Assembly (NCBI GenBank): GCA_964599225.1
Contig: CAZRDO010000001.1
Coordinates: forward strand, 15,153 to 79,152
DNA: 64,000 nucleotides
Direction: 5' to 3'
Origin: an uncultured Candidatus Saccharibacteria bacterium
Lineage (GTDB): Bacteria > Patescibacteriota > Minisyncoccia > Phycocordibacterales > UBA9973
Below, one piece after another: positions 3,278 through 31,767 of the stretch. Made by a program: the position numbers and the translations under genes. The notes below the pieces were generated by a model, which was given only the letters and a program-made list of their open reading frames with translations, was not told where the DNA came from and ran no database searches. Position 1 is the first letter of the stretch, and every line of letters begins with the position of its first letter.

Positions 3278-3856
3278 ATGTATACTTACCGCATGGAATA
3301 TACTCTTGATCGAATCAGATATTTTTATGAAAAAGAGAATCGCATGCCCTCATATGAGGAAGCGACGAAGCTCTTTGGTTATCAGTCTAAAAACGCTGCT
3401 TATGGCCGTATACGGAAGTTTATCGAAGAAGGCTATCTCGCTAAGAGCGCACGGGGCAAAGTCATTCCTGGGCCTCGATTTCACCAAATTAAGCTTCTCG
3501 GTCTGGTTGAGGCAGGCTTTCCAACCCCAGCTGAAGAGAACCTCCTCGATACGGTGACACTCGATGAGTATTTGGTGAAGAATAAAGAAGCGACGTTCAT
3601 GCTTCAGGTCAAGGGGGATTCGATGTATGACGCAGGTATTCGCGAGGGTGACATGGTGCTTGTCGAGCGTACTCGAGAAGCCAAGAATGGCCAGATTGTG
3701 ATTGCTGAAGTCGATGGGGCATGGACAATGAAATATTTTCGTCGTGAAGGCAAGCATACCTACCTCGAACCTGCTAACAAAAAATATAAACCTATTATTC
3801 CGAAAGAGAGTCTCACCATTACGGCAGTCGTGAAAGCAGTGATTAGGAAATATTAA
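3278..3856 (+). CDS. lexA: LexA repressor (S24 peptidase)
   Basis: N-terminal wHTH followed by the S24 autoprotease module (GDSMYDAGIREGDMVLVER…NGQIVIAEVDGAWTMKYF). Confidence 0.88.
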   Translation: MYTYRMEYTLDRIRYFYEKENRMPSYEEATKLFGYQSKNAAYGRIRKFIEEGYLAKSARGKVIPGPRFHQIKLLGLVEAGFPTPAEENLLDTVTLDEYLVKNKEATFMLQVKGDSMYDAGIREGDMVLVERTREAKNGQIVIAEVDGAWTMKYFRREGKHTYLEPANKKYKPIIPKESLTITAVVKAVIRKY

Positions 3857-3877: not shown

Positions 3878-4141
3878 ATGCATTATGTCTATGTTTTGAA
3901 AAGTAAAAAGGATGGTGCATTGTATACTGGGTGTACAAAAGATTTAAAGACTAGATTAGACTTACGTAATGCAGGGGAGATTACATCCACAAGACTTCGC
4001 AGGCCATTTATACTCATTTATTACGAAGCTTTGCTCGACAAAAGTGATGCATTCGCGCGAGAGCAGTGGTTAAAGACTGGCTGGGGCAGAAACCACTTAC
4101 ATAAAATTCTTTCTAACTATTTTAAAAATTATGGCGGGTAA
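3878..4141 (+). CDS. GIY-YIG domain small nuclease (UPF0213/YhbQ-like), copy 1
   Basis: 87 aa containing YVYVLKS…LYTGCTKDLKTRL…RRPFILIYYEA (GIY-YIG core). Embedded between lexA and dinB with a 10-nt overlap into dinB. Confidence 0.7.
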   Translation: MHYVYVLKSKKDGALYTGCTKDLKTRLDLRNAGEITSTRLRRPFILIYYEALLDKSDAFAREQWLKTGWGRNHLHKILSNYFKNYGG

Positions 4142-5369
4142 AATGATTCTTCACGTTGATGGCGACGGATTCTTTGCTTACTGCGAAATGGCAGCCTACC
4201 CGGCGCTTCGTGGGAAGCCTGTGGCAGTGGGTGCTGAGCGTGGTATTGTCACTGCTTCAAGCTACCCGGCTAAGCGTATGGGAGTGACGCGAGGGTTACC
4301 TATGTTTAAACTACGTAAAGAATTTCCTAGTGTAACCGTGCTCCCGTCACACTTCGAACTCTACGAAGCCTACTCAGCAAAGCTCTATGGAGTCCTCACG
4401 CGTCACAGTGATAGAGTTGAACGCTACAGTATCGACGAGTGCTTTGCAGTACTTGAAGATAATGGTGAGGATTGGGATATGAGGCTCCGTGCAATCAAGA
4501 CAGAGGTGCAGGAGGATTTAGGAATCACCTTTTCATTTGGCTTAGCAGAGACAAAGTCACTGGCGAAACTCGCCTCGAAATGGCAGAAGCCTGATGGTGC
4601 GACAGTTATCCGTTCTGGAGAAGAAAGGTTATACCTTGAAGGTACACCAATTGGGAAAATTTGGGGTATTGGTAGGCGAACTGCACAAGTGTGTCTCGAG
4701 CGAGGCATTCGTACCGCACTTGATTTGCGGAGTCTCACACTCCAGGATGTCATGCAGTATTTCTCTCTACCTATTGTCGAAATTTGGCATGAACTTGGTG
4801 GGATACCTATGCATGATGTAGGTAATAATGATGAATCTCGTAAATCGCTTCAAGCCACCCGTACGTTTCCTAAAATACGTGGCGATGCATCAGCGGTTTT
4901 TTCAGAACTCTCATACAACACTGAAGTAGTGACAGCGCGGGCAAGAGAAGAAGGGCTTTTTGCACGAGCGGGCAATATATTTTTAAAAACTAATGATTTC
5001 CGCTACTATACACGGGAGTTTGTGCTACCCGAATACAGTGCTGATCCCAAAGAACTCCTTGCGGTAATTGAGCCAATATTCCAGGAGCTTTATAAACCAG
5101 ATGTCTATTATCGAGCTACTGGCATTACACTCAGTGGTTTACGCGAAGAAGATGAGATAGCACGAGATTTATTTGGCGCACGGGAAGCTAAGCTCAAATC
5201 TGATACATCGTTTCTCACGGCGCTTGATAGCGTACATGAGCGCTTTGGTACTCATGCGCTTTTCCTTGGTTCAAGTTTGGGGGCAGTGGCGAGAAGGGAA
5301 GATACTGTCAGTGTGACTGATAGGTATATTCCAGGATTACCGTATCCGTATTTAGGGGAGGTGGTGTAA
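4131..5369 (+). CDS. dinB: DNA polymerase IV (Y-family, DinB)
   Basis: ILHVDGDGFFAYCEM…YSIDECFAVLED catalytic motifs of Y-family polymerases, 412 aa. Confidence 0.88.
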   Translation: MAGKMILHVDGDGFFAYCEMAAYPALRGKPVAVGAERGIVTASSYPAKRMGVTRGLPMFKLRKEFPSVTVLPSHFELYEAYSAKLYGVLTRHSDRVERYSIDECFAVLEDNGEDWDMRLRAIKTEVQEDLGITFSFGLAETKSLAKLASKWQKPDGATVIRSGEERLYLEGTPIGKIWGIGRRTAQVCLERGIRTALDLRSLTLQDVMQYFSLPIVEIWHELGGIPMHDVGNNDESRKSLQATRTFPKIRGDASAVFSELSYNTEVVTARAREEGLFARAGNIFLKTNDFRYYTREFVLPEYSADPKELLAVIEPIFQELYKPDVYYRATGITLSGLREEDEIARDLFGAREAKLKSDTSFLTALDSVHERFGTHALFLGSSLGAVARREDTVSVTDRYIPGLPYPYLGEVV

Positions 5370-10761: not shown

Positions 10762-11934
10762 CTATCGTTTCGTTCTTCGCAAAAACGCAGGGACATTCCA
10801 TTCTTCATCGTCATCACCTTCAAAGACGCTCTCATCAACTTTCTTTGGCGCTGTTGCACTCTCGGAACGTTTTACATAATCGGAAGGCAAGGTGTTGTGG
10901 ATCTCCTTTTTTGGCGCATCGAGAGGAGTGTCATTCTTGGACCCTGCTGCTTGAGTGAAAAGAGATTTTTTTGGTCCATCAGTAGGGAAGCCGGTTGCGA
11001 TGACAGTAACTTTGATTTCACCTTTTTTCAAGCGCTCATCCTTAATCGTACCGAAGATAACCTTGGCATCTTTATCGATACTCTCAGTGATAATTCGAGC
11101 TGCTTCTTGGATTTCAAGTATACCGAGATCGTCGCCACCAGAGATTGCAAAGAGTACACCGTGAGCGCCATTGATTGAGATATCGAGAAGTGGAGAGTTG
11201 ATCGCTTCAAGCGCAGCGTGTTCTGCACGCTTGTCGCCACTTGCTGTTCCAATACCCATGAGGGCTGAACCAGCGTCTTGCATGACTGCGCGAATATCTG
11301 CGAAGTCGACGTTGATCACGCCTGGAGTAGTGATGAGATCAGTGATACCTTCAACTGCTTGGCGAAGAATATCATCACAGAGTGCAAAGGCTTGTTTGAA
11401 TGACATTTCCTTACTTGCAATCATGAGGAGTCGATCATTTGGAATGACGATGATTGCATCAACTTCGTTTGAGAGTTCTGCGAAAGCCGCTTCAGCAATG
11501 CGTCCACGTTGGGCACCTTCGAAGGCAAATGGTCGTGTGACTACGCCGACTGTGAGAATACCTTGCTCCTTGGCAGCGCGAGCAACAATAGGGGACGCTC
11601 CGGATCCTGTACCACCACCGAGTCCGGTTGCGATAAATACCATGTCAGCACCTTTGATGACATCTTGGATTTCAGCTTTGGTTTCTTCTGCAGCTTTTCT
11701 TCCCACATCTGGACTCATGCCAGCGCCAAGACCCTTGGTAAGGTTCTTACCAATGTGAATTTTCTTATCAGCAAGTGATTTGTGTAAGTCCTGCGTATCG
11801 GTATTCATGGCGATGAATTCGACACCCTTGACTTTGGAATTAATCATGTGATTAATTGCATTTCCACCCGATCCGCCTACGCCGATTACCTTAATTCGGG
11901 CAAAAGATTCTATGTCTGGATTAACTTTTGGCAT
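10762..11934 (-). CDS. ftsZ: cell division GTPase FtsZ
   Basis: GGGTGSG tubulin signature within VIGVGGSGGNAINHM…FIATGLGGGTGSGASPIVA, 390 aa with an acidic C-terminal tail. Confidence 0.95.
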   Translation of the reverse strand: MPKVNPDIESFARIKVIGVGGSGGNAINHMINSKVKGVEFIAMNTDTQDLHKSLADKKIHIGKNLTKGLGAGMSPDVGRKAAEETKAEIQDVIKGADMVFIATGLGGGTGSGASPIVARAAKEQGILTVGVVTRPFAFEGAQRGRIAEAAFAELSNEVDAIIVIPNDRLLMIASKEMSFKQAFALCDDILRQAVEGITDLITTPGVINVDFADIRAVMQDAGSALMGIGTASGDKRAEHAALEAINSPLLDISINGAHGVLFAISGGDDLGILEIQEAARIITESIDKDAKVIFGTIKDERLKKGEIKVTVIATGFPTDGPKKSLFTQAAGSKNDTPLDAPKKEIHNTLPSDYVKRSESATAPKKVDESVFEGDDDEEWNVPAFLRRTKR

Positions 11935-12028
11935 GGTATTTGTTTCTCCCCCGTGAAATTATAAATATATTCATATACTAGCAGACCCTTCAAAAAAGGG
12001 AAGTCCCACTCTTGAGCTGCTATGGTAC

Positions 12029-13189
12029 TTAGGGAAGGAGTTGTTTGAAAAAGTTTTTGATCGTGTCTTTGAATGTTCCTTCATCGACATCATAATGTCG
12101 CTCTGTTTGGGCACCAAGAAGTGTACTGTAAACAGGAAGACCTGCTGCAGTGAGCCAAACTGCATCTTTGGGAATAAATTTGTTTCCTTTCAATTCAAAT
12201 TCTCCGATGCGGGCAGGAAGTCCGAGCACATCACGTGCGATCTCAGCTATATGTGCAATACGTGCGCCACCACCAGTGAGAATGACACCAGCCGGGAGGA
12301 GGCCACTGCGTTTAATTTTACGAAGCTGTGCATCGATGTGTTCAAATATATCAATGAGTCGCGCAGAAATGATTTCTTGAATTTTTTTCTGTGAATGTTC
12401 CTGAAAAATATTTCCAATTTTTATACTCTCAGCTTCTTCAAGCGAGACCTTTAATCCAAGAGCAATATCATTAGTGATATCGTTTGAACCGATTGGGATG
12501 ACGAAGAGAAGCGTGACAAAGTCATCTTCAAATACTGAGACTGACACTGTATCTGAGCCAATATTAATCACTGCGCACCCAGCTGTGCGCTGTTTTTCAT
12601 TGGTCGAAATAATACTTCCCGCTAGTGGCCCAGCAATGACATCAACAACATCAAGTCCAACAGAGCTCGCGACCGAAACGAAATCATCAACGTGTTGAGC
12701 GAGAATACTAATGAAGAGTGCTTTGGTATCAAGCTTAATGCCTTGCATACCCTCAGGTCTACCAATGACAGGCTTCGAATCAATTGAAAATGAAAGGGGA
12801 ATAGTGTGGAGGATTTTTCTATTGGTGAGTTTTAAACTATGTTCAGCATCACGAAGCGATTTTTCTACATCAAGTGAGGTCACTTCACCATCTGCTTTAG
12901 ACATGATCGCAGAACCTACTGCAATCGAGGAGAGAAGTCCGACCCCATTTGCAGCGAGTATGGCATGTCTTGGTGAGACACCCGCGACGCGTACTGCATC
13001 ACCGAGCGCACGCTTGACTGACTCAAGGGCTTTATGTGGATGGATGATATAACCTTCGCGCATACCAAGAGCATCAGCACTACCAGTGCCAATAATTTTT
13101 GGGAATTTTTCTCCCTTTTCAAATTGTGCGATTGCAATTCTTGTGGTGCTTGATCCAATATCAATACACGCAACAGTATTTCTGGCCAT
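12029..13189 (-). CDS. ftsA: cell division protein FtsA
   Basis: Actin-fold ATPase (ACIDIGSSTTRIAIA…) directly upstream of ftsZ in the conserved ftsA-ftsZ order. Confidence 0.9.
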   Translation of the reverse strand: MARNTVACIDIGSSTTRIAIAQFEKGEKFPKIIGTGSADALGMREGYIIHPHKALESVKRALGDAVRVAGVSPRHAILAANGVGLLSSIAVGSAIMSKADGEVTSLDVEKSLRDAEHSLKLTNRKILHTIPLSFSIDSKPVIGRPEGMQGIKLDTKALFISILAQHVDDFVSVASSVGLDVVDVIAGPLAGSIISTNEKQRTAGCAVINIGSDTVSVSVFEDDFVTLLFVIPIGSNDITNDIALGLKVSLEEAESIKIGNIFQEHSQKKIQEIISARLIDIFEHIDAQLRKIKRSGLLPAGVILTGGGARIAHIAEIARDVLGLPARIGEFELKGNKFIPKDAVWLTAAGLPVYSTLLGAQTERHYDVDEGTFKDTIKNFFKQLLP

Positions 13190-13227
13190 GTGAAATTGAG
13201 TAAGTTACGCGAGAGAAAGTGTGAGCA

Positions 13228-13635
13228 CTATTCGTGATCGGGGTATGCAATATTAAAATATGCGCACCACTTTCTTTCAGCTTGCTTCATTGTACTACCA
13301 TGCTCATACTCCGCCAAATGAAGTAGGCCGTGGATAAACAAAAAAAGTAGGAATTTTGATTCTTGCATAGCAAATTCTTTTGCTTGGGCACGTATAGTCT
13401 TTGGTTCAAGTATGATCTCTCCACTTGATTTGGAAAGCGGGAAACTAAGGATAGTAGTGGGATAGTTTTTGTTTCTAAATTCCTTATTAAGTTTCGCCGA
13501 AGTGCGAGCACTTACACATGAGACTGAGAGCTCATAGCGCTTACCGAGGATTTTTTCTTTAGCCATAACGAAAGATATTCGCGGTATGCGAATATTCTTT
13601 ACTTCTTTTATGATCTGGAAATTCTCTTGGCTCAT
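13228..13635 (-). CDS. ybeY: rRNA maturation endoribonuclease YbeY
   Basis: HGLLHLAEYEHG matches the YbeY metal-binding HGxLHLxGYDH motif, 135 aa. Confidence 0.75.
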   Translation of the reverse strand: MSQENFQIIKEVKNIRIPRISFVMAKEKILGKRYELSVSCVSARTSAKLNKEFRNKNYPTTILSFPLSKSSGEIILEPKTIRAQAKEFAMQESKFLLFLFIHGLLHLAEYEHGSTMKQAERKWCAYFNIAYPDHE

Positions 13636-13647
13636 TGAGCTTCGGTA

Positions 13648-13875
13648 TTAAGCAATTTTACCAAGCTTGCGGAGACGATCGTTGGCTTTACGACGAACAA
13701 TACGCTTAAGCATACTTGTTTTTTGAGAAAGCTTAGATGGTTTGCGAACCTCGTGGCGGCGGGCTTTGACAAGTTGTACAAGTCGAGATTCCTGTGCACT
13801 TCGAGAAAAGCGTCGGAGAAGACTCGAGTTCGATTCGCTTCCTGATTTTTTTACTTCAATTACAGTCATTGACAT
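13648..13875 (-). CDS. rpsU: 30S ribosomal protein S21
   Basis: 75 aa, very basic, LLRRFSRSAQESRLVQLVKARRHEVRKPSK matches the S21 core pattern. Confidence 0.65.
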   Translation of the reverse strand: MSMTVIEVKKSGSESNSSLLRRFSRSAQESRLVQLVKARRHEVRKPSKLSQKTSMLKRIVRRKANDRLRKLGKIA

Positions 13876-13911
13876 GACTAAAGAATAGCACAGATATACC
13901 CCTACTGCAAG

Positions 13912-15879
13912 CTACTGTATGAGCCCTTCTGGGTTAATAGTAGTCGAAAGTGCTTCTTGGGCCATCTCAATGAGCATCTCTCTACAGCGCATAGACTCGG
14001 GTGATGGTGGAAGAGTCATTAATGCTTCCCAGTAGGGAGTAGGAATCCGCACCATCACACAAGTACCAGAAATATATTTCCCACGTATTACCTCGTTGAA
14101 TGCAAATGTATTGAGTTCAACGACATATGGGTGTTGTATGAGCTCGTCAGTAAGTGGTGCATTATTTTTGAAAATAAAACGTACGGTCGTCACAAATGGG
14201 CTATAGTGAAGTTCTTTTCGCTCTTCGAGATCATCACGAATAATTTTTGGATAGGCAGACCGTTCAATATCGGTGAGGACTTTATTGTCAGGTGCCCGAG
14301 TCTGGACGATACAGGCATCTATCGCAAGTGCACGAAGTAGCAAAATGAGTCGTAATGCTTTTTCGACTACGACATAAATTGGAAGTGAGAACATTGAATC
14401 GATCGACACGACTACGACTGTAGCAATATCTTTGAGATACGGAATTGCTTGTTCGGTGCCCACAAGAATACCTCCTTCAGTTTCGTAAAATTTCTTTATG
14501 AAAAGTTCTCGAGCACGGATGGTCTTGATAGTACTCTGATCAAAGGGGAATACTCGCTCATCACCAAAGTCTTTCTTTAATTCATCAATAATACGTTCAT
14601 TACCCAGACCGTATTCCTTGAGATTCCAGCTTTTACAATACGGACATGCAAAGTTTGCACGCTCGACGATGCGACAGCGATTACACATGAAATAACGCTC
14701 CTCAACTTTTTTAATAGTTGCTGATTGATTTTTCTGTTTAGTAATTATTTTGTCCGTATAAAGTACGAGTGGACTTCCACAGCGTCCACAGGCACAGATA
14801 TGTCCACAGTCCTGACAGAGTGTTGTTGTTGCCAAGCCTTTGCGATGAGTGAGTACAAAGACATGTTTCCTTTGGCGAAGTGAATCTGCTATCTGCTTTC
14901 CAGTCTTACTCGAGAAAACCTTGAATTTATTTTTATCCTTTATTGTCGCTTCATCGTCCAACATATTTACAATCGAAAAGGTTTTCTGCTCTCTAGGGGC
15001 AATCGTGAGTGGTCTCAGTTCTACAAATTCTTTAAGCTGGTGTCGATAGAGTGTTTCAAATCGCAAAAGCGTATCTGCCAGAATAAATCGTACATGGAGT
15101 TCTTCCGCAAGTATCTCAAGCAATACTCTCCAATCAATCTGATTACGATCAAACGTACGGTAATCACTTGAAGACTCACGTTCCAAAATTATAGTTCTGA
15201 GATCACGTCGGGGTATTGTCGAAAATGAGGGAGTAGCAATAATAAGTACCGGATGGGTTTTACTAAGAATTTCTCCGATCATTTTCTTTATGACTGGATT
15301 GGCTAGTTGACTATGTAGTGTATACACATATTCTCCTATGCCACGTGCTACTTCTTGTTCGATACGGATACATTCAATTATCGTCGGGGCAATAATCATG
15401 CAGGATTCGTTGCGGGCAAAAGCTTCTCGCACGAGTGTTCGATACAGTGACCTGCGCTCATCAGTAGGAAGCTCTAAGACACATTTTTCTGACTGTGGAA
15501 GTTCATGTGTCGATCGAGCTACAGTTGGTGACTTGGCAGAGAGTGTCTCATCAATAAGGGTGAGCGGTAAGAGAAGTCCGAGCATACTACTCGTACTCGT
15601 CAGAAAATGGAGTGCAGAGCGCTTTGCTGTAGTAAATAATGCAGACGAAAATGGAGAAGGCCCAAGTGCGCGGATTACTTTTTTCATTTTAAACCGTTCT
15701 TTTTTCAGCGAGAGTTTTGTGGTTTCAATTGGTCGTACTTCTACTACTAATGCAGTAACCTCTCGACTGCCGATCATAACGACAACCAAATCTCCCTCAC
15801 GGATATCAAATGAGGAAAAGTAGGATAGGGTGTCTTTGGGCAGTCCACGCACTATAGGAATTACGGAAACGGAGATCAT
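13912..15879 (-). CDS. priA: primosomal protein N' (PriA) homolog with degenerate Walker A/B motifs
   Basis: N-terminal 3'-DNA-binding-like domain and the PriA Cys-rich zinc-binding region (CQDCGHICACGRCGSP…CNRCRIVERANFACPYCKS). The helicase core aligns to PriA but has LPTDERRSLY in place of GxTGSGKT and ILERE in place of DEEH. Confidence 0.6.
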   Translation of the reverse strand: MISVSVIPIVRGLPKDTLSYFSSFDIREGDLVVVMIGSREVTALVVEVRPIETTKLSLKKERFKMKKVIRALGPSPFSSALFTTAKRSALHFLTSTSSMLGLLLPLTLIDETLSAKSPTVARSTHELPQSEKCVLELPTDERRSLYRTLVREAFARNESCMIIAPTIIECIRIEQEVARGIGEYVYTLHSQLANPVIKKMIGEILSKTHPVLIIATPSFSTIPRRDLRTIILERESSSDYRTFDRNQIDWRVLLEILAEELHVRFILADTLLRFETLYRHQLKEFVELRPLTIAPREQKTFSIVNMLDDEATIKDKNKFKVFSSKTGKQIADSLRQRKHVFVLTHRKGLATTTLCQDCGHICACGRCGSPLVLYTDKIITKQKNQSATIKKVEERYFMCNRCRIVERANFACPYCKSWNLKEYGLGNERIIDELKKDFGDERVFPFDQSTIKTIRARELFIKKFYETEGGILVGTEQAIPYLKDIATVVVVSIDSMFSLPIYVVVEKALRLILLLRALAIDACIVQTRAPDNKVLTDIERSAYPKIIRDDLEERKELHYSPFVTTVRFIFKNNAPLTDELIQHPYVVELNTFAFNEVIRGKYISGTCVMVRIPTPYWEALMTLPPSPESMRCREMLIEMAQEALSTTINPEGLIQ

Positions 15880-15993
15880 ATGAGAAGAATACCATGAGAC
15901 TACTATCAGAAACCAAGATCGTCGTGATATACTCGAATAATCTCTGAATTTATTTACTATTCCCTATAACCTTATCACTACACGCTAATTTAT

Positions 15994-17007
15994 ATGGCCT
16001 TATTTTCAAATCGTTTAGGAATAGATTTAGGCACCGCCAATACGCTTGTATTCGTACCAGGTAAGGGAATTGTATTAAATGAACCTTCAGTGGTGGCGAT
16101 TTCCGAGGTAAATAATCGCGTACTTGCTATCGGAAATGAAGCGAAAGAAATGATTGGCAAAACCCCGGAGAGTATTATTGCCTACCGTCCGATGAAGGAT
16201 GGTGTTATTGCTGACTACCGTGTGACTGAAGCCATGCTACGATACTTTATTGATAAGGCACTTGGTAAATTTCATTTCTTCAAACCTGATGTCATGATTT
16301 CTGTGCCAGCCGGCGTCACCTCAACTGAACGACGCGCAGTCATCGAAGCGGCACTCCGCGCTGGTGCGAAAAACGCCTATGTGGTCAAAGAGCCTATACT
16401 TGCCGCGATTGGTGCTGGGATTCCTATTCACGAATCCTGTGGACATATGGTTGTCGACATTGGTGGTGGCACAACAGATGTCGCCGTTATTTCTCTTGGG
16501 GGTATCGTGGCATCAACCTCAGTGAAATGTGCGGGTAATAAAATTGATCAGGCAATCACAGACTATATAAAGCGGGCATACAATTTAGGAATTGGTGATA
16601 AGACGGCCGAAGATATCAAGATAAAAATTGGAGCGGCGGTACCGCTTGAGGAGAATCTCACAATGACAGTCAAAGGGCGTGATTTTATTCAAGGGCTTCC
16701 ACGTACGACAGAAATTTCGACCAATGAAATCGTCAAAGCAATTGATAGTGAGCTTCGTCAGATACTCAAGGCAATCAAAGATGTGCTCTCAGAGACACCA
16801 CCAGAACTTGCCTCCGACATTATTGATAAGGGTATTATCATGACTGGTGGTACATCACAACTTCGTAATTTCCCAGAACTTGTTTTTCGAGCGACTGGAG
16901 TTAAAGCCAGACTTGCTGACGATGCACTCTATTGTGTTGCCAAGGGTACCGGCATTGCGCTTGCCCATCTTGATTCATATAAACGTACTATTATAAGTAA
17001 ACGTTAG
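15994..17007 (+). CDS. mreB: rod-shape determining actin homolog MreB
   Basis: LGIDLGTANTLVF…MVVDIGGGTTDVAVISLGG, the typical MreB phosphate-1/2 motifs. Confidence 0.92.
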   Translation: MALFSNRLGIDLGTANTLVFVPGKGIVLNEPSVVAISEVNNRVLAIGNEAKEMIGKTPESIIAYRPMKDGVIADYRVTEAMLRYFIDKALGKFHFFKPDVMISVPAGVTSTERRAVIEAALRAGAKNAYVVKEPILAAIGAGIPIHESCGHMVVDIGGGTTDVAVISLGGIVASTSVKCAGNKIDQAITDYIKRAYNLGIGDKTAEDIKIKIGAAVPLEENLTMTVKGRDFIQGLPRTTEISTNEIVKAIDSELRQILKAIKDVLSETPPELASDIIDKGIIMTGGTSQLRNFPELVFRATGVKARLADDALYCVAKGTGIALAHLDSYKRTIISKR

Positions 17008-17010
17008 TAT

Positions 17011-17688
17011 ATGTTTGGGGTTCCACTCTCAAAATTGCAGCATACATATATTGTTGGCGGGGAATTAGAGGAAGCTGAAGAAATTCTGGCCTATCTAAAA
17101 ACGGAGGGCATCGAGACTCTCGGTAATCCTGGAGTGATAGTCGAACATCATGAGCAGTTTGGTATTCTGGAGTCGAGAATATTTAAGGAGAAGTGTATTC
17201 TCTCATCTATAACTGATCATACCTTCTACATACTATGCGCAAGATCACTAACTCGTGAAGCAGAACAATCGCTTTTGAAACTTCTTGAGGAACCAATCAA
17301 AGGACTTCATTTTTTCTTAGTTACACCATACCCAGATCAATTACTTGATACACTTCGCTCCCGTGCTCAGGTAATAACACGTATTAAAAATAAGGAAACG
17401 CAAAATGCATTCCTTAAAAAAACTATTGCTTCACGATTAGGTGAAATTCGCACACTACTTAAAACAACTGATGGAGATAATGAGACAGAGTCACTCACGT
17501 CAGCGAAAGCGCTCAAGTTTGTGGAAAGTATAGAGCGTGAGCTTGCAAGCGAAATGCATACAAAAAAGAACTACCACCTTGTGCCCTACCTTGCTCAGTT
17601 ACTTTCGTTCAAACGCCATCTCCATGCTCGTGGCTCGTCAGTGAAAATGATTCTGGAACACCTAGCACTCACATTGCCTCAATTATAA
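17011..17688 (+). CDS. holB: DNA polymerase III delta'-like clamp-loader subunit (HolB-like), short form
   Basis: SLLKLLEEP and TLRSRAQ motifs (sensor-1/SRC-like) aligned with delta', with no Walker A at the N-terminus. Confidence 0.55.
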   Translation: MFGVPLSKLQHTYIVGGELEEAEEILAYLKTEGIETLGNPGVIVEHHEQFGILESRIFKEKCILSSITDHTFYILCARSLTREAEQSLLKLLEEPIKGLHFFLVTPYPDQLLDTLRSRAQVITRIKNKETQNAFLKKTIASRLGEIRTLLKTTDGDNETESLTSAKALKFVESIERELASEMHTKKNYHLVPYLAQLLSFKRHLHARGSSVKMILEHLALTLPQL

Positions 17689-17713
17689 AATCAAATTATA
17701 CTTACTCACATAT

Positions 17714-18253
17714 ATGTCTACATACGTAAAAGAGTTAAAGGATTCACTCATAAAGGTTGGTGAATGGTTATCCAAAGAATATGGATCTGTTCATACGGGT
17801 AGAGCGAGTCCTTCTATACTTGATAATGTCAGAGTGGATTCATACGGATCACTTCAACCGATTGGAAATATTGCTTCAGTCAATGTTGAAGATCCGAAGA
17901 CACTTCGAATTGTTCCTTGGGATAAAGGCACAATTAAAGCTATTGAGAAAGCAATTGGCGCAGCCAATACTGGACTCTCGGTTGCTTCTGATGATCAAGG
18001 ATTGAGAGTTATTTTCCCAATGTTAACAACAGAGAATCGTGAACGTACAGTAAAAGTACTGAAAGAAAAGCTTGAAGACGCACGCATTAGTGTTCGCAAA
18101 GAACGTGAGACTGCTATGAAAATGCTCAAAGACCAAGCAGGTAGTGAAGACGAAGCGGAGCGTGAGAAAGTTGAAATTCAAAAGTGCGTTGACGAAGCCA
18201 ATCAAAACCTTGAGCTTATTTTCCAGAGAAAAGAAAAGGAGGTGCTTAACTAA
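17714..18253 (+). CDS. frr: ribosome recycling factor
   Basis: 179 aa, full-length similarity to RRF (…SILDNVRVDSYGSLQPIGNIASV…). Confidence 0.92.
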   Translation: MSTYVKELKDSLIKVGEWLSKEYGSVHTGRASPSILDNVRVDSYGSLQPIGNIASVNVEDPKTLRIVPWDKGTIKAIEKAIGAANTGLSVASDDQGLRVIFPMLTTENRERTVKVLKEKLEDARISVRKERETAMKMLKDQAGSEDEAEREKVEIQKCVDEANQNLELIFQRKEKEVLN

Positions 18254-18335
18254 TACTTACTTTCAATGCAGATGTTTGACCCGAACGTTTACGGGTTATC
18301 TTTCAACTTAGCCTCTTTTACTTTATACTGAGCTG

Positions 18336-19430
18336 ATGTCCATCATTATATTTATACTCATTCTACTTGTACTTATTCTTGTCCATGAATATGGGCATTT
18401 TATTGTTGCCAAAAAGTCCGGCATTCGAGTAGATGAATTCGGTATTGGCTTCCCACCAAGAGCGCTGAAACTCTTTACTCGGAAGGGCACACTGTTCTCA
18501 CTCAACTGGATTCCATTTGGTGGATTCGTAAAAATTTTTGGTGAAAATCCTGATGATGAATCAGAGAGTGGTCCCGATGCAGCACGTGCACTCGTGAACA
18601 AACCACGAGGAATTCAAGCACTCGTACTTATTGCTGGTATTGTATTTAATATTTTACTTGCTTGGCTCCTCCTCTCAGTTGCATTTATGTTCGGACTACA
18701 GGCATCAAGTTCTTCATTTGATAAAACGTTGGTACAAAACTCAATGCTAACGATCACGCAGGTTTCAGAGGAGACTCCAGCTCATGCGGCTGGTCTTGAA
18801 GCTGGTGATAAGGTTGAAAGTATTTCCTATCTAGAAGAAAAAATCTCAGATCCGTCACCAGAAGTATTTCAAGAATTTGTGCATACTCATGGTGACCTAC
18901 CTATTATGCTTAGTGTTGTTCGTGACAGTGAAGCTATGGATATTATGGTCACGCCAACTATAAGTGAAGGAGGTACTGTTCCCATGATTGGTGTCTCACT
19001 TGATGAAGTAGGAACACTCAAACTGCCATTTTTTAAATCTTTCATTTACGGTGCCAAAACCACAATCAATGAGACGAGTAATATTGTCAAAGCATTTGGG
19101 GGACTCCTTGGAGGTGCTGCAACTGGTAATGCTGATCTCTCTGATGTCGCAGGTCCAATTGGAATCGTAGGACTTGTAAAACAAGCACTTAATCTCGGAT
19201 TCGCTTATGTACTCTATTTCACTGCGCTAATCTCAATTAACCTTGCGGTTATTAATCTATTCCCATTTCCAGCACTCGATGGCGGACGTCTACTTTTTCT
19301 CCTCATCGAAGCAATTCGTGGTAAACGCCTCAACCAAAAATTCGCAAATTACGCCAACAGTATCGGTTTTATAATTCTCATCGGACTAATGATTGTAATT
19401 ACCGTGCATGATGTCATTAAATTGTTTTAA
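18336..19430 (+). CDS. rseP: RIP metalloprotease RseP (site-2 protease, M50) with PDZ domain
   Basis: HEYGHFIVAKK (HExxH in TM1), a central PDZ-like region and the C-terminal LDGG motif (PALDGGRLLFL). Confidence 0.9.
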   Translation: MSIIIFILILLVLILVHEYGHFIVAKKSGIRVDEFGIGFPPRALKLFTRKGTLFSLNWIPFGGFVKIFGENPDDESESGPDAARALVNKPRGIQALVLIAGIVFNILLAWLLLSVAFMFGLQASSSSFDKTLVQNSMLTITQVSEETPAHAAGLEAGDKVESISYLEEKISDPSPEVFQEFVHTHGDLPIMLSVVRDSEAMDIMVTPTISEGGTVPMIGVSLDEVGTLKLPFFKSFIYGAKTTINETSNIVKAFGGLLGGAATGNADLSDVAGPIGIVGLVKQALNLGFAYVLYFTALISINLAVINLFPFPALDGGRLLFLLIEAIRGKRLNQKFANYANSIGFIILIGLMIVITVHDVIKLF

Positions 19431-21973: not shown

Positions 21974-23281
21974 ATGATTTTTGGAGATCTCCTCACTATT
22001 GGTTCACGCGAAGCACTCTACTATGTGTGGCATTATATTCCGTATGCGATTGTACCTATTCTTGGATTAGTTTCTTGGCATATGTGGCTTAATTACATTC
22101 GCCATGCCTATCTTGCCTCGCTTAATTTTAAGCTTCTTGAAGTCAGAATTCCCCAAGAAATTTGGAAATCACCGCAAGCGATGGAATTTATTCTGATGAA
22201 CGCCCTCTATCAAACAGGTGGTGTCTCAACTTGGAAGGCAAAGTATTGGGATGGCAAAGTCTTACTCTGGTTTTCGCTTGAGATTACTTCGATCGAGGGT
22301 GATATCCATTTTTATATTCGTTGTCCCGCACAGTATAAATCTCTTGTAGAATCACAAGTATATTCTCAGTATCCTGATGTCGAAATTGCCGAAGTGCCAG
22401 ATTACACAGAAGCCGTTCCACCTTTTACGAAAGATAATGGTTGGGAGATGTTTGGTTGGCAGTACAAACTTGCAAAGCCCGATCCATTTCCAATCAAAAC
22501 CTATATCGACTACGGTATGGACAAGCAATTCTCACTAGAAGAAGAACAGAAAATTGATCCACTGACTCCGCTGTTAGAATATTTTGGTTCAATTGGTAAA
22601 GGTGAACAGCTTTGGATGCAGATTATTACTCGTGGAGTGCCTGCGAAAGGTACCTCAGCGTTTTCATTTGGTCGCTACCCATCAAAAGATCATTACTTCC
22701 AAAAGGATTCACTTCAGGAACTTGGTGCCCAACAGAGAGCTGAATATATAAAAAAGGAAATTAAGGCACTTGTTGATTCAGGTCTTGTGACGGCCGATAA
22801 AGCCAAAGATAACCCAATTGCGCTTCTCACTGATGAGAAAAAGGATGTACTTAAATCAATGGAGCGAAATATGCAGAAGTTTTCATTTGACTGTGGTATG
22901 AGAATTCTCTACATAGCACACAAGGATAAATACTCTGGTATGCAGGTACCAAACCTCTCGGTACTCTTTAGACCATTTAGTTCGCCATTTTCAAATACTA
23001 TTGTTCCATCAGGTGCCAAAAGTGCTGTGGCGTTTGACCATCCCTGGCAAGATTTTTCAGGTAACCGCTTTTTACGTAAGAAAATTGACTTCTTTAAAGC
23101 CTACAAGCTTCGCCAATACTACTATCCACCTTTTTTTGATACGACACATCAAGATCCTTTCGTACTCTCAACTGAAGAACTCGCGACACTCTACCACTTC
23201 CCAGGACGTGTTTCAGAAACTCCGTCATTTAAGCGCATTGATTCCAAAAAAGCTGAGGCTCCGACAGACCTTCCGATTTAA
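21974..23281 (+). CDS. hypothetical protein, 435 aa, N-terminal membrane helix
   Basis: Long intact ORF, aromatic-rich, with no catalytic motifs recognised. Confidence 0.45.
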   Translation: MIFGDLLTIGSREALYYVWHYIPYAIVPILGLVSWHMWLNYIRHAYLASLNFKLLEVRIPQEIWKSPQAMEFILMNALYQTGGVSTWKAKYWDGKVLLWFSLEITSIEGDIHFYIRCPAQYKSLVESQVYSQYPDVEIAEVPDYTEAVPPFTKDNGWEMFGWQYKLAKPDPFPIKTYIDYGMDKQFSLEEEQKIDPLTPLLEYFGSIGKGEQLWMQIITRGVPAKGTSAFSFGRYPSKDHYFQKDSLQELGAQQRAEYIKKEIKALVDSGLVTADKAKDNPIALLTDEKKDVLKSMERNMQKFSFDCGMRILYIAHKDKYSGMQVPNLSVLFRPFSSPFSNTIVPSGAKSAVAFDHPWQDFSGNRFLRKKIDFFKAYKLRQYYYPPFFDTTHQDPFVLSTEELATLYHFPGRVSETPSFKRIDSKKAEAPTDLPI

Positions 23282-28793: not shown

Positions 28794-30557
28794 ATGCAAT
28801 CTGAAGAAATCCGAAAGCGATTCCTCACATTTTTCGAGAAACGTGGCCATGCAATCTTGCCTTCGGCCTCACTTGTACCTGAGAATGATCCATCAGTACT
28901 TTTTAATACTGCTGGGATGCAGCCACTCGTACCATATCTGCTTGGTCAGAAGCATCCGTCAGGAAATCGACTGGTGAATATCCAAAAATGTGTTCGCACA
29001 GGTGACCTTGATGATATCGGCGACAATCGCCACTTCTCATTCTTTGAAATGATGGGCAATTGGTCGTTAGGTGCATATTTTAAAGAAGAGGCTATTGAGT
29101 ATAGTTTTAAATTTTTAACTATTGGAGATAATGAAGATGAAGGCAACAAGGGTCTTGGACTTAATCTATCCCAACTTTATGTTACGGTATTTGAAGGTGA
29201 CGAGAATGCTCCGTTTGATGAAGAGTCAAAGAAGGTTTGGATGAAGTTCGGAATTCCTGAAAATCGCATTTATGCGTTACCTGCTGATGACAACTGGTGG
29301 AGCCCAGGAGACAACGGCCCATGTGGTCCATGTACCGAAATGTTTTACGATGTGACTGGTAGGATTGGAGATCTGTCGCATGAGCAATTTATTGAAGCGG
29401 TCAAAAAAGAAGATGTAATCGAAATATGGAATGACGTTTTCATGGAATATGAAAAAAAAGATGGAAAGGTTATCGGTAAACTTTCACAACGCAATGTTGA
29501 TACCGGTGCTGGTCTTGAGCGAATCACAGCTGTCATGCAGGGCAAGAAGACTGCATATGATACAGATTTGTTCGGGGGGATAATCACAAATCTTAGAAGT
29601 GCTGCAATAAATAAAGATGAGAGAGCAATTAGAGTAGTAGCAGATCACATAAGAACAGCTATTTTCATTATTAATGATGGAGTTCTGCCCTCCAACAACG
29701 GTAAAGGCTACGTATTACGAAGATTAATTCGTCGTGCAGTTAGATTTGTGGATTATCTTGGTCTTAAATATGGAACCATTGATTTCTTGGTTGATGATTT
29801 TATTCAAAAATATAAAGATGCATATCCTGACTTAGTAGTTAATCTCGAACACATCAAAAGAGAACTAGATAAAGAAGAAATCAAATTTCATCAAACACTG
29901 GAAACTGGCCTAAAAGAATTCGAGAAAGGCACTGATCCATTTGTCCTGTTTACCACCTATGGTTTCCCAATTGAACTGACGCTCGAGCTTGCCACAGAAA
30001 AGGGACAGATAATTGATCTCGATGATTTCAATATAAAAATGGTAGAGCATCAAAAGCTTTCCCAAACTGCTTCAGCTGGTATGTTCAAAGGTGGACTCGC
30101 CAATCATAATGAGCAAACAATTAAGCTCCACACTGCCCACCATTTATTACTTGCTGCACTACAACAAGTCTTGGGCAAAGAAGTTAAGCAGCGGGGAAGT
30201 AATATTACCGAAGAGCGATTGCGAATAGATTTTGTATTTGATCGGAAGATGACTGATGAAGAGAAGATCAAAGTTGAAAATAGTGTAAATGAGTGGATTA
30301 CACAAGACCTTGAAGTAGTACGTAAGGAAATGCCACGCGAGGAAGCTAAAAAGATCGGAGCAGAAATGGAATTTGGTGCCAAGTATCCTGATATGGTTTC
30401 TGTATATATGATTGTCGATAAAGATGGTAATCCGATATCCAAAGAATTTTGTGGTGGCCCACATGTCTCACGTACGAGTGAACTTGGAATTTTTAAAATC
30501 CAGAAAGAAGAAGCTTCATCACAAGGTGTACGAAGAATCAAAGCAATTCTTTCTTAG
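28794..30557 (+). CDS. alaS: alanine--tRNA ligase, short form lacking the C-Ala domain
   Basis: Class II catalytic core (FFEKRGHAILPSASLVP…), tRNA-recognition region and editing domain (HTAHHLL…CGGPHV), ending right after the editing domain at 587 aa. Confidence 0.9.
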   Translation: MQSEEIRKRFLTFFEKRGHAILPSASLVPENDPSVLFNTAGMQPLVPYLLGQKHPSGNRLVNIQKCVRTGDLDDIGDNRHFSFFEMMGNWSLGAYFKEEAIEYSFKFLTIGDNEDEGNKGLGLNLSQLYVTVFEGDENAPFDEESKKVWMKFGIPENRIYALPADDNWWSPGDNGPCGPCTEMFYDVTGRIGDLSHEQFIEAVKKEDVIEIWNDVFMEYEKKDGKVIGKLSQRNVDTGAGLERITAVMQGKKTAYDTDLFGGIITNLRSAAINKDERAIRVVADHIRTAIFIINDGVLPSNNGKGYVLRRLIRRAVRFVDYLGLKYGTIDFLVDDFIQKYKDAYPDLVVNLEHIKRELDKEEIKFHQTLETGLKEFEKGTDPFVLFTTYGFPIELTLELATEKGQIIDLDDFNIKMVEHQKLSQTASAGMFKGGLANHNEQTIKLHTAHHLLLAALQQVLGKEVKQRGSNITEERLRIDFVFDRKMTDEEKIKVENSVNEWITQDLEVVRKEMPREEAKKIGAEMEFGAKYPDMVSVYMIVDKDGNPISKEFCGGPHVSRTSELGIFKIQKEEASSQGVRRIKAILS

Positions 30558-30585
30558 AATCATTTGCTTGGTATATAATAAGACC

Positions 30586-31767
30586 ATGTTTTTTGGAAGT
30601 AAAAAGAAAAATGGAAATTCAGATCTTAGACTTTCTATTGACTTAGGCTCTGGTTCAGTTGGAGCCGCGCTAAGTCACACCATAGTAAAAGATGGTAAGA
30701 CGAAAACTGAAATCCTTGCTAGCGTACGCAAGCCTGTTTTTTTCAAAGATGATTTAAATTTCCAGATTTTTCTCACGGGCATGATGAGCGCGCTCAAGCA
30801 GGCACTCACTGAAATCCATGACGTACATATTGGTACTCCATCGAGTATCTCAGTATTTCTTCGTGCTCCGTGGTATAGCGCACAAGTAAGGCGCGTTGTC
30901 TCTTCACGGGACATAGAGTTTTCTGTGACCCATAAACTATTAAATGAAATGCTTCGTCGCGAATCGGACATCTTTGAATCAGCTGCGAATGCGAAATATC
31001 AGGAACTGCATAATGCGCTCGAAACGATTGAAGAAAAGACGCTCAATGTCGAGCTCAATGGCTACCCTGTGAATCACCCAATTGGGGCACGTGCTAAATC
31101 ACTTGCCCTCACTTTTTATATTAGCGCTAGTCCCAAAATCGTTCTTGATACGATAACTGATACTGTGCGTGGAATTTTCCCACACAAAAAAATTGTATTC
31201 CATTCGTATCTACTCTCACTCTATGTACTCATTAGGGATTTCGTAGGTGCCCAGGAAGATTTCATATTCTTAGATATAGGTGCAGAAATCTCAGAAATTT
31301 CAATAATTAAAAGTGGAGTTCTGACCCAATCAGCGACATTTCCAATCGGTATACACAATATCGTACGAGCACTTATGGATGGGTATACGATTGGTTTTGA
31401 GTCGGCCTATTCGAAAATTAGAATGTATTCAGAAAAAGCACTTAGTCTTGATGAGCAAAACAAAATTTCTGGTATACTAAAGAGCGTAAATGAAAATTGG
31501 GTAAAGGAATTTAGTAACGGGCTGACGAGTCTCATGAAAAATGGAACAGTGCCAAGCATACTCTATCTTAGTGCAGACGAAGCAATACTTACTTGGAGTA
31601 AGGAGGTGATTGAAAATGAGGCATTCCATCGCTATACTGCTACTGACCGAGCTTTTGAGGTTATTCCGATCGCGACGAAACTATTTGCAGACCATATTCG
31701 ACTCAGTACTAATGTTGCCCGTGATCCATTTCTTGCCGCTGAAGTACTCTATCAAGCTACTAACTAA
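30586..31767 (+). CDS. actin-like ATPase of the FtsA/PilM superfamily
   Basis: N-terminal phosphate-1 motif LSIDLGSGSVGAALS and actin-fold length (~394 aa). The upstream part of the ORF (30412..) overlaps alaS, so the start was set at MFFGS. Confidence 0.5.
   Translation: MFFGSKKKNGNSDLRLSIDLGSGSVGAALSHTIVKDGKTKTEILASVRKPVFFKDDLNFQIFLTGMMSALKQALTEIHDVHIGTPSSISVFLRAPWYSAQVRRVVSSRDIEFSVTHKLLNEMLRRESDIFESAANAKYQELHNALETIEEKTLNVELNGYPVNHPIGARAKSLALTFYISASPKIVLDTITDTVRGIFPHKKIVFHSYLLSLYVLIRDFVGAQEDFIFLDIGAEISEISIIKSGVLTQSATFPIGIHNIVRALMDGYTIGFESAYSKIRMYSEKALSLDEQNKISGILKSVNENWVKEFSNGLTSLMKNGTVPSILYLSADEAILTWSKEVIENEAFHRYTATDRAFEVIPIATKLFADHIRLSTNVARDPFLAAEVLYQATN

Follow-up and report, generated by a model that had tools for sequence, protein, structure and literature searches.

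In E. coli PriA, replacement of the Walker lysine by arginine (K230R) abolishes both ATPase and helicase activity but does not impair the assembly of the primosome (PMC5778457, PMC4504706), and restart by the PriA-PriB pathway works without ATPase activity (PMC5778457, PMC10175261). A second, weak nucleotide site has also been suggested for the E. coli protein (PMC5778457). The PriA proteins of Deinococcus-Thermus carry the same lysine-to-arginine change, and that of D. radiodurans exhibits no ATPase or helicase activity, yet it binds forks and DnaB (Lopper et al., 2015; PMC4504706). The protein described here is therefore not without precedent, since a biochemically proven PriA pseudohelicase already exists (PMC4504706). 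Our search of the literature on PriA in Patescibacteria, the candidate phyla radiation (CPR) or Parcubacteria retrieved nothing relevant, and an ATPase-dead PriA in Paceibacteria is apparently undescribed so far. A priA located beside a novel family is mentioned in the literature, but in phylum UBP6.

Our analysis of a 64-kb stretch of DNA (hereafter the window) confirmed the presence of a PriA homologue with degenerate ATPase motifs. The gene is an uninterrupted ATG-to-stop ORF (Table 1); its length of 655 aa and its position agree with the earlier note, which did not give the strand, found here to be minus. The start codon is right, since the N-terminus MISVSVIPIVRG fits the family consensus MYIxTVIPxxKG. 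A promoter and terminator scan around the gene gave counts at background level.

Table 1. Coordinates of the priA-like gene, its predicted domains and motif sites, and its neighbours in the window.
Feature	Residues	Position in window	Strand	Remarks
priA-like gene	1-655	13912..15879	-	655 codons plus stop at 13912-13914; putative PriA-derived pseudohelicase
3'-end-binding domain (3'BD)	1-105	15565..15879	-	PF17764, AF2, alignment
Linker	106-130	15490..15564	-	short, variable; alignment gap
RecA-like lobe 1	131-335	14875..15489	-	no catalytic motifs; AF2, alignment
Pseudo-Walker A ELPTDERR	136-143	15451..15474	-	opposite E. coli GVTGSGKT
Pseudo-Walker B ILERESS	231-237	15169..15189	-	opposite E. 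coli VIDEEHD
Pseudo-motif III LADTLLR	267-273	15061..15081	-	opposite E. coli LGSATPA
Cysteine-rich region	352-420	14620..14826	-	four CxxC pairs, elongated beta-hairpin
RecA-like lobe 2	421-570 and 336-351	14170..14619 and 14827-14874	-	MAFFT, hhalign
Motif VI site ILLLRALAIDACIVQT	512-527	14299..14346	-	E. coli R584 and R587 equivalents absent
C-terminal domain	571-655	13915..14169	-	putative
Downstream same-strand genes		10762..13875	-	75-aa basic ORF, ybeY, ftsA, ftsZ
75-aa basic ORF		13648-13875	-	ribosomal protein S21-like by eye
ybeY		13228-13635	-	Pfam
ftsA		12029-13189	-	Pfam
ftsZ		10762-11934	-	Pfam
Divergent neighbours		15994..19430	+	mreB, holB-like gene, frr, M50 protease; Pfam

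Sequence, profile and predicted fold all agree with the assignment of the protein to PriA. PriA models were the sole matches in the NCBIfam scan, including TIGR00595 (1.3e-41, 142.8 bits, cut-off 230.35), NF004066 (146.1 bits, cut-off 813) and NF004069 (residues 12-577), although every one of these curated models gives a score beneath its own cut-off. Only PriA chains were retrieved by phmmer from the PDB (4e-13), and structure prediction (AF2) yielded a PriA-like fold. Identity to canonical PriA (E. coli and K. pneumoniae; PDB 4NL4, 6DGD, 8FAK) amounts to 15-18%. Despite the sub-cut-off NCBIfam scores, sequence comparison makes homology to PriA secure, because hhalign matched the family profile to E. 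coli PriA with a probability of 99.9 and an E value of 1.9e-32 over 511 columns.

The motif positions were confirmed by alignment to PriA sequences with phmmer, MAFFT and hhalign. All three methods place E136-LPTDER-R143 opposite E. coli G224-VTGSGK-T231, with R142 opposite K230, and the P-loop position is indeed degenerate, as had been read from the sequence. In the family, G224 is replaced by Q (99%), G229 by D or E and K230 by R (100%), while the T231 position is hydrophobic but R in this protein. The placement of EKCVLE opposite E. coli ERLRLNTEQ by hhalign was rejected in favor of the MAFFT placement opposite AWLLAG, because in the AF2 model residues 132-136 form strand beta1, which immediately precedes the P-loop helix; both placements give the same Walker A alignment. 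The reading of the DEEH box as ILERESS was likewise reproduced, E233-R-E-S236 standing opposite D320-E-E-H323 (phmmer, MAFFT), with D320 changed to E (98%), E321 to H, N or R, and H323 to S or N across the family, and E322 kept as E (100%).

The degeneration of the Walker motifs thus stands, but its extent is larger than the earlier note had recognized, as the absence of the winged helix and of the segment ahead of lobe 1 had been missed, together with the changes in motifs III and VI. At motif III, S356 is replaced by D (98%), T358 by L (90%) and A360 by R (99%). Motif V is half retained (LVGTEQ), its KGHHF part being replaced or deleted, and a 5-residue deletion takes out the GRAGK arginine-finger loop of motif VI in 100% of 119 homologues and 100% of cluster representatives. 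The motif IV-like RKGLA is retained, with R346, G348 and L349 invariant. Residues E131, R142, E235, D269 and R273 of the dead cleft are also invariant, indicating a continued constraint to which binding of a ligand or partner, and not structure alone, could contribute. A non-canonical NTPase or translocase site, formed for example by R142 with E233 and E235, would be in line with the (near) invariance of these residues and with the preserved lobes and motif IV and V backbones. We nevertheless consider it very unlikely: the glycine-rich loop is gone and acidic D140 and E141 lie where phosphates would sit, the arginine-finger loop is deleted in every sequence, and the pre-lobe-1 (Q-motif-like) segment is missing. 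Moreover, the lysine-to-arginine change by itself kills E. coli PriA (PMC5778457), and the D. radiodurans protein is inactive with milder changes (PMC4504706).

Two causes of the missing motifs had been raised, namely a frameshift hiding a canonical core and Walker motifs shifted by an indel. The former found no support, as no Walker A or DExH string occurs in the six frames of 13801-16000; the scan for GxxxxGK[ST], GK[ST] and DExH/DEAD in this interval matched only once, at a GKS that occurs by chance on the other strand. The latter is countered by homologues of the same length that show identical substitutions. The window also contains a PIF1-like helicase with intact GEPGSGKT and LIIDE motifs, and since this helicase is intact and no motif is present in other frames, the dead motifs are no artefact.

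Regarding selection, comparison of the gene with its closest relative gave a pN/pS of 0.155/0.73 and a dN/dS of about 0.06, and the gene is under purifying selection. Twenty-six columns are invariant, and conservation of lobe 1 equals that of the other domains. On the contig of the closest relative, two 1-nt insertions break the gene up into three called ORFs; they may stem from sequencing errors or from true decay in that strain, and they are the one observation in favor of a decaying pseudogene or of a sequencing or frameshift artefact. Such an explanation is hardly credible and for this window it is refuted by the intact 655-codon frame, the low dN/dS, the absence of concealed motifs in the six-frame scan and the homologues. 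The relative's own 90% cluster includes an intact 654-aa version, and at least 550 stretches of species-representative genomes encode a relative, those examined being of similar length with the same substitutions.

The dead version is in fact common to a large clade, and the idea that it might be peculiar to one genome was rejected. Relatives are encoded by hundreds of species representatives of Paceibacteria, the named ones being Paceibacterota/Nomurabacteria, and Paceibacteria species in nature probably number in the thousands. In an exhaustive profile search, at least 150 clusters (50% identity) exceed 650 bits on the family profile, a score surpassed by every cluster representative listed. 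The 8054 matches at E<=1e-30 are a mixture of family members and canonical PriAs, since E. coli PriA itself scores 163 bits on this profile. A P-loop (GxxxxGK[ST]) was found in 0 of 120 homologues, in 0/80 species-representative loci and in none of 148 cluster representatives, whereas arginine occupies the position of the Walker lysine in 119/119 homologues and 148/148 cluster representatives. The lone match to the pattern in 149 representatives, GEFARGKS in P0144, was discarded, as it lies in helix alpha1 (REAFAKKxS region), outside the P-loop. The same substitutions at similar length were observed in the 80 loci examined and in homologues elsewhere. Sequence data thus indicate that a PriA without the ATPase motifs is the standard form across Paceibacteria, a very large group with tiny genomes.

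Outside the catalytic motifs, the 3'BD, both RecA-like lobes of the SF2 helicase and the zinc region with its eight cysteines are kept, along with a putative C-terminal domain, while the winged helix (WH) is gone. The N-terminal 3'BD noticed earlier is present, based on a weak PF17764 match below the cut-off (residues 19-105, E 0.0016, 18.7 bits), the predicted fold and an invariant equivalent of Tyr18. PF17764 is precomputed in most homologues, and AF2 predicts a beta-barrel with helices (pLDDT 75-94) that forms part of the PriA superpositions. Y20 and F21, opposite E. coli Y18 and L19, are invariant in the family, and K66/K67 fall at the position of E. coli K61 when the alignment is read manually. 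The pocket of the domain is kept only in part, as E. coli D17 is replaced by Ser or Thr and most family members have Arg at the G37 position.

Between the 3'BD and the helicase core, a 25-residue linker takes the place of ~110 E. coli residues (109-218), which make up the WH domain, the WH-HD linker and the pre-lobe-1 helix, so that the 3'BD is joined to strand beta1 of lobe 1. Both MAFFT and hhalign open a gap opposite E. coli residues ~109-218. The linker has no column conserved at >=90% and the highest dN/dS of the gene (0.30). Lobe 1, which aligns with E. coli 219-420, is predicted by AF2 as an alpha/beta fold with pLDDT >90; 20% of its columns are >=90% conserved and its dN/dS is 0.09. 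In the aromatic-loop region D249 and R251 are invariant. The zinc-region cysteines are intact, as had been noted, with C355, C358, C364, C367, C399, C402, C412 and C415 invariant or >=90% conserved in the family, and two zinc sites are predicted from the sequence of this region. With 31 residues, the spacer between the second and third CxxC pairs is longer than in most family members (24 or 18) and in E. coli (14); AF2 places strands at 370-380 and 390-399.

Compared with the described systems, the protein shares with Deinococcus-Thermus PriA (Lopper et al., 2015; PMC4504706) the degenerate motifs I and II, the arginine in place of the Walker lysine and the preserved cysteine-rich region. The role proposed below would also be common to both, as each would bind forks and recruit DnaB with no need to hydrolyze ATP, in lineages without PriB and DnaT. 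However, our protein belongs to another, unrelated phylum (Patescibacteria, class Paceibacteria), and its degeneration extends further, to motif III and half of motif V, to a deleted motif VI loop and to the missing winged helix and pre-lobe-1 segment. Given the distance between the phyla, the two losses are assumed to be independent. In addition, the Deinococcus pseudohelicase has been proven biochemically, while the Paceibacteria form is known here from sequence and predicted structure. In the E. coli variants K230R (priA300) and K230A/D the Walker lysine site is hit as here, R142 corresponding to the K230R change. Those variants, however, were made in the laboratory by changing one residue of a helicase that is otherwise intact and has a WH domain and the partners PriB, DnaT and DnaC, whereas in the natural protein the whole active site has been rebuilt.

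Relative to the canonical structures, the ATPase motifs, the WH domain and the W186/R187/Y190 linker motif are absent, and the cysteine-rich region has a longer beta-hairpin. A direct junction of the 3'BD with the helicase core is also seen in 6DCR, the crystal structure of an E. coli PriA WH deletion and the second-best Foldseek match (TM 0.69-0.70). Furthermore, the protein aligns from residue 12 or 7 with two short NCBIfam PriA subfamilies, NF004069 (612 positions) and NF004072 (648), which, judged from model length alone, apparently have no WH domain. Unlike our protein, 6DCR and these subfamilies are presumed to be active helicases.

The gene occupies a conserved position in related loci. 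On the same strand downstream, ybeY was found in 46/80, ftsA in 44/80 and ftsZ in 41/80 of them, many loci ending early on that side, while upstream on the opposite strand mreB (74/80), the holB-like gene (68/80), frr (67/80) and the M50 protease (65/80) are retained. The 75-aa ORF gave no Pfam match at E<=1e-3. The gene is a single syntenic orthologue, with the mreB-holB-frr and ybeY-ftsA-ftsZ context conserved. This bears on the scenario of a paralogue, in which a canonical, active PriA would be encoded elsewhere in the genome and our protein would be an accessory or regulator derived from a duplicated priA. The genome data comprise 64 kb only, and the unreached NCBIfam equivalog cut-offs, as a result of which pipelines often label such proteins as 'hypothetical', would also be compatible with it. 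We regard this scenario as quite unlikely, though, given that the position is the same across species, that JGI annotation names such proteins the primosomal protein N' of their genomes, and that tblastn with E. coli PriA found no second copy within the 64-kb window. Paralogues of replication genes are seldom retained in the small genomes of CPR bacteria, which also counts against it.

The conserved gene order next to ftsA/ftsZ and mreB may instead point to a PriA scaffold repurposed as a zinc- and DNA-binding protein that serves some process distinct from the reloading of the replisome. One possibility, suggested by the operon of the S21-like ORF, ybeY, ftsA and ftsZ and by the divergent mreB, is a coupling of chromosome state to cell division. 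The invariant charged residues of the dead cleft, which could make a new binding site, and a cysteine-rich hairpin longer than in E. coli fit such a role as well. It nonetheless appears unlikely to us, as the fork-recognition modules (the 3'BD with its invariant Tyr, the aromatic-loop region with D249/R251, the cysteine-rich region and the putative C-terminal domain) are kept and the neighbors frr, holB and ybeY form a mixed housekeeping cluster rather than a functional module. In addition, there is precedent for a dead PriA that supports restart (PMC4504706, PMC5778457).

We thus believe, with a probability of roughly 70%, that the PriA orthologue of Paceibacteria (Patescibacteria/CPR) has evolved into a pseudohelicase that recognizes forks and reloads the helicase without ATP. 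The earlier reading, in which an ATPase-dead PriA still recognizes forks and recruits the replisome, is supported, the loss of activity being inferred from the motif changes and the model. It is supported because motifs I, II and III, the KGHHF part of motif V and motif VI are replaced or deleted, because an invariant arginine replaces the Walker lysine exactly as in helicase-dead K230R and, with respect to fork recognition, because purifying selection has preserved the zinc module and the modules for DNA recognition. The loss of the winged helix and of the WH-HD linker motif fits as well, since both take part in orienting and regulating unwinding.

According to this proposal, the protein would not bind or hydrolyze ATP productively and would therefore neither translocate nor unwind DNA, but abandoned forks and D-loops would still be bound in a structure-specific manner. 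[quoted passage not shown] Once the fork is bound, a surface for docking may become exposed, probably on the cysteine-rich region and its long hairpin, by which DnaB would be recruited directly or via the lineage's loader or SSB. The window itself contains none of these candidate partners (DnaB, a loader, SSB). Action would be limited to forks whose lagging-strand template is already single-stranded. E. coli PriA K230R acts in this same ATP-independent manner when it works with PriB (PMC5778457, PMC10175261), and D. radiodurans PriA has been proposed to do likewise (PMC4504706). Whether Paceibacteria in general rely solely on an ATP-independent, WH-less PriA scaffold, with no canonical PriA and no adaptors of the PriB, DnaT or DnaD type, is a tentative extension to which we give slightly less than even odds.

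If true, structure-specific fork recognition would be sufficient when combined with the docking of DnaB or its loader directly on PriA, for which the long hairpin in the cysteine-rich region may serve, and the two would represent the minimal core of bacterial replication restart. The rebuilt cleft (E131, R142, E235, D269, R273) could in that case either form a 'nucleotide-mimic' latch that is permanently in place or bind a new partner. Paceibacteria would be a second and far larger lineage in which PriA catalysis has been lost and the protein is yet under strong selection, strengthening the view that the indispensable job of PriA is fork recognition and primosome nucleation rather than unwinding. 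A naturally small PriA of 655 aa, with no WH and no predicted ATPase, could also be an object for structural work on ATP-independent helicase reloading. Curated PriA models miss such proteins, and surveys could therefore wrongly score Paceibacteria as PriA-less or as having an active helicase. These considerations bear on replication restart in ultra-small CPR genomes without known adaptor proteins. Finally, a LexA-like gene and dinB are also present in the window, and replication restart is thus relevant in this organism.

The priA-like protein is a PriA homologue, as the earlier note had proposed, and a member of the PriA family by fold as well. PriA models were its only family matches, all of them below their curated cut-offs; TIGR00595 scored 142.8 bits (E 1.3e-41) against a cut-off of 230, and Pfam recognized the 3'-end-binding domain (3'BD) alone, and weakly (E 0.0016). 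PriA chains were likewise the only phmmer matches among all PDB sequences (approximately 4e-13, residues 144-566), while a profile of 119 homologues aligned with E. coli PriA in hhalign over 511 columns (probability 99.9, E 1.9e-32). The AlphaFold2 model derived from the 119-homologue alignment, which is confident (mean pLDDT 89.1, pTM 0.88), retrieved PriA chains as its top nine Foldseek matches (8fak_H, E 2.4e-34, TM 0.72), the second being 6dcr, i.e., E. coli PriA with the winged-helix domain (WH) deleted. The catalytic features that define the family, however, are lacking.

The degenerate Walker A and B motifs and the intact zinc-region cysteines described previously were both confirmed. 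ELPTDERR and ERES, like the other motifs, were placed concordantly against E. coli PriA by phmmer, MAFFT and hhalign, all eight cysteines are present, and the losses extend beyond those originally claimed (see table). Also absent are the WH, the helix ahead of strand beta1 in the first RecA-like lobe (lobe 1) and the winged-helix-to-helicase (WH-HD) linker, which in PriA carries the conserved motif W186/R187/Y190 (PMC8323898); the 3'BD is joined directly to beta1 by 25 variable residues. Retained are the RKGLA element, which resembles motif IV, the aromatic-loop region, whose D249 and R251 are invariant, and Tyr20, opposite E. coli Tyr18, which stacks on the 3' end. It is very unlikely that the protein keeps some non-canonical NTPase activity, as it has no glycine loop, carries acidic residues in its phosphate site and has lost the arginine-finger loop by deletion. 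No other sampled member of the family has so long a spacer between its second and third cysteine pairs, and the tip of the predicted hairpin is of low confidence (pLDDT ~58).

Motifs of the priA-like protein and coordinates of features in the window
Feature	Window position (strand)	E. coli PriA	This locus	Family
Motif I (Walker A)		G224-VTGSGK-T231	E136-LPTDER-R143	G224 -> Q (99%), G229 -> D/E, K230 -> R (100%)
Motif II (Walker B)		D320-E-E-H323	E233-R-E-S236	E 98%, H/N/R, E 100%, S/N
Motif III		GSATP	ADTLL	S356 -> D (98%), T358 -> L (90%)
Motif V		LIGTQMLAKGHHF	LVGTEQ-AIPYLK	LIGTEM retained, KGHHF gone
Motif VI		QVAGRAGRAGK	LLRALA + 5-residue gap	gap 100%
Cysteine-rich region, with pair 2-3 spacer/hairpin	14620-14826 (-)	14 residues	31 residues (368-398)	24 or 18 residues in most
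priA-like gene	13912-15879 (-)		ATG start, 655 codons	
LexA-like S24 peptidase	3278-3856 (+)			
Y-family polymerase (DinB/IMS family)	4131-5369 (+)			
Conserved gene order	10762-19430			
Very basic ORF	13648-13875 (-)		75 aa	
holB-like gene (clamp-loader delta')	17011-17688 (+)		225 aa only	
ORF	21974-23281 (+)		435 aa	
Alanyl-tRNA synthetase	28794-30557 (+)		587 aa	
ORF	30412-31767 (+)		451 aa	
ORF	31776-33224 (+)		482 aa	
PIF1/RecD-like SF1 helicase	47672-49441 (+)		589 aa	
Transketolase, N-terminal gene	49736-50623 (+)			
Transketolase, C-terminal gene	51147-52139 (+)			

The gene model is sound, because the N-terminus agrees with that of homologues. A refutation named in the earlier note, a frameshift hiding a canonical motif, failed, since neither a Walker A nor a DExH string occurs in the six frames of the gene region. 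Compared with the closest relative (locus L082; 71% nucleotide identity), pN/pS was 0.155/0.73 and dN/dS ~0.06, the latter approximate since dS is saturated; dN/dS was 0.09 in the dead lobe 1 and highest in the linker (0.30). Within the family, lobe 1 is conserved on par with the other domains, 20% of its columns being at least 90% conserved. Together, the frames, this dN/dS and a PIF1-like helicase located 32 kb off, whose GEPGSGKT and LIIDE motifs are perfect, refute a pseudogene or an artefact of sequencing in the window. In the relative itself (L082:10001-11952, JGI contig Ga0558126_01902), the gene is broken up into three called ORFs (474, 108 and 96 aa) by two 1-nt insertions that the window gene lacks (gene nt 1416 and 1705). 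These are probably assembly errors, real decay in that strain being possible; P0122, a homologue from the same 90% cluster, is an unbroken 654-aa sequence.

The dead state is clade-wide. GxxxxGK[ST] was found in none of the 120 listed homologues, which all derive from Paceibacterota, Nomurabacteria or the 'Patescibacteria group'. Scanning the GTDB species, one genome each, yielded at least 600 matching stretches, among which at least 550 encode a relative, and a P-loop was absent from all 80 loci fetched, labeled Paceibacterota, Paceibacteria, Nomurabacteria, Taylorbacteria, Parcubacteria, Minisyncoccia or generically as uncultured bacterium. When the profile was searched exhaustively against 1.84 billion cluster representatives, at least 150 clusters matched, all those listed exceeding 650 bits, while E. 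coli PriA reached only 163 bits on the same profile; all representatives listed (100%) have Arg opposite K230 as well as the deletion in motif VI. The sole Walker-A-like match among them (P0144) sits in helix alpha1 and is due to chance. The protein studied here is a divergent member, with 30-36% identity to the listed homologues save one relative at 78%.

Upstream, on the opposite strand, mreB (74/80 loci), the adjacent holB-like gene (68/80), frr (67/80) and an M50 protease gene (65/80) are kept; ybeY (46/80), ftsA (44/80) and ftsZ (41/80) follow downstream, on the same strand as the priA-like gene, many loci ending early on that side. The order is strongly conserved, the priA-like gene, the small basic ORF, ybeY, ftsA, ftsZ and trxB diverging from the mreB side, and this conservation across the 80 loci argues for one orthologous gene. 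It is thus hardly probable that the protein is a paralogue beside a canonical PriA elsewhere in the genome, of which 64 kb are visible, given its single syntenic placement and the absence of a second PriA copy from the 64-kb window. Overall, the protein has the architecture of PriA with the ATP site missing, and this form is fixed and maintained by selection.

To our knowledge, PriA pseudohelicases, i.e., PriA-derived proteins with degenerate motifs I and II, have so far been known from Deinococcus-Thermus only. The pseudo-PriA concept itself is already established; judging from sequence, the Paceibacteria form would represent a second such lineage, much larger and more thoroughly degenerate. 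PriA of D. radiodurans, whose genome lacks priB and dnaT, shares the replacement of the Walker lysine by Arg, has no ATPase or helicase activity, and binds forks and DnaB (PMC4504706). By analogy, the priA-like protein probably belongs functionally with these pseudohelicases, which runs against the textbook generalization of PriA as a conserved active helicase everywhere but in Deinococcus. Precedents for the WH-less architecture are short curated PriA subfamilies and the engineered 6DCR protein. Literature searches found no papers describing PriA of Patescibacteria, CPR or Parcubacteria.

In E. coli, restart still proceeds both in vivo and in vitro with the K230R mutant (priA300), which has lost ATPase, helicase and translocase activities; the PriA-PriB pathway can dispense with ATPase activity (PMC5778457, PMC10175261). 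On the fork, the cysteine-rich region of E. coli PriA swings, enclosing lagging-strand ssDNA in a pore and uncovering a surface on which the next factor can dock, and helicase activity is required only if the lagging arm is double-stranded (PMC10175261, PMC13594977). We thus believe that the priA-like protein is most likely a fork- and D-loop-recognition scaffold and a minimal natural system. Its 3'BD would capture the leading-strand 3' end, the dead core, cysteine-rich region and C-terminal domain would grip the lagging-strand template, and DnaB, its loader or SSB would be recruited without ATP turnover. As the WH and linker motif of PriA orient and regulate unwinding (PMC8323898), their loss would be a logical consequence of lost unwinding. 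Repurposing, e.g., in cell division, is possible in light of the ftsA/ftsZ/mreB neighborhood, but is not favored since all fork-recognition modules are kept. Returning to the scaffold, the PIF1/RecD-like helicase might supply unwinding beyond the dead PriA; it carries a C-terminal HTH_40 domain and is the sole clear P-loop helicase within the window. A LexA-like repressor and DinB, both encoded in the window, show that the organism handles replication-blocking damage; the two adjoining genes resemble an SOS-type damage-response cassette, here within a reduced CPR genome.

The window (GC ~40%) is a typical piece of a small-genome Patescibacteria chromosome, also carrying mraW, PBP, rpoA, grpE-dnaK, gatB, ribosomal protein, pentose-phosphate and glycolysis genes. 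The holB-like product aligns only to positions 105-156 of DNA_pol3_delta2, a Pfam model of 161 positions, and is another much-reduced AAA+-derived replication protein. The basic ORF between the priA-like gene and ybeY resembles ribosomal protein bS21 by eye (…LLRRFSRS…KPS…), with no Pfam match at E<=1e-3, and the closest relative has a called ORF of 75 aa in the corresponding place (L082:12005-12232). The adjacent 451- and 482-aa ORFs and the 435-aa ORF had no Pfam matches in the same scan, the counterpart of the last in the relative giving only a weak DUF8128 match. If a TTG start is used, the 451-aa ORF overlaps the end of alaS, whose product has the catalytic and second additional domains and is too short to fit the usual C-terminal (C-Ala) region as well. 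Finally, transketolase is split into two genes separated by ~520 nt.
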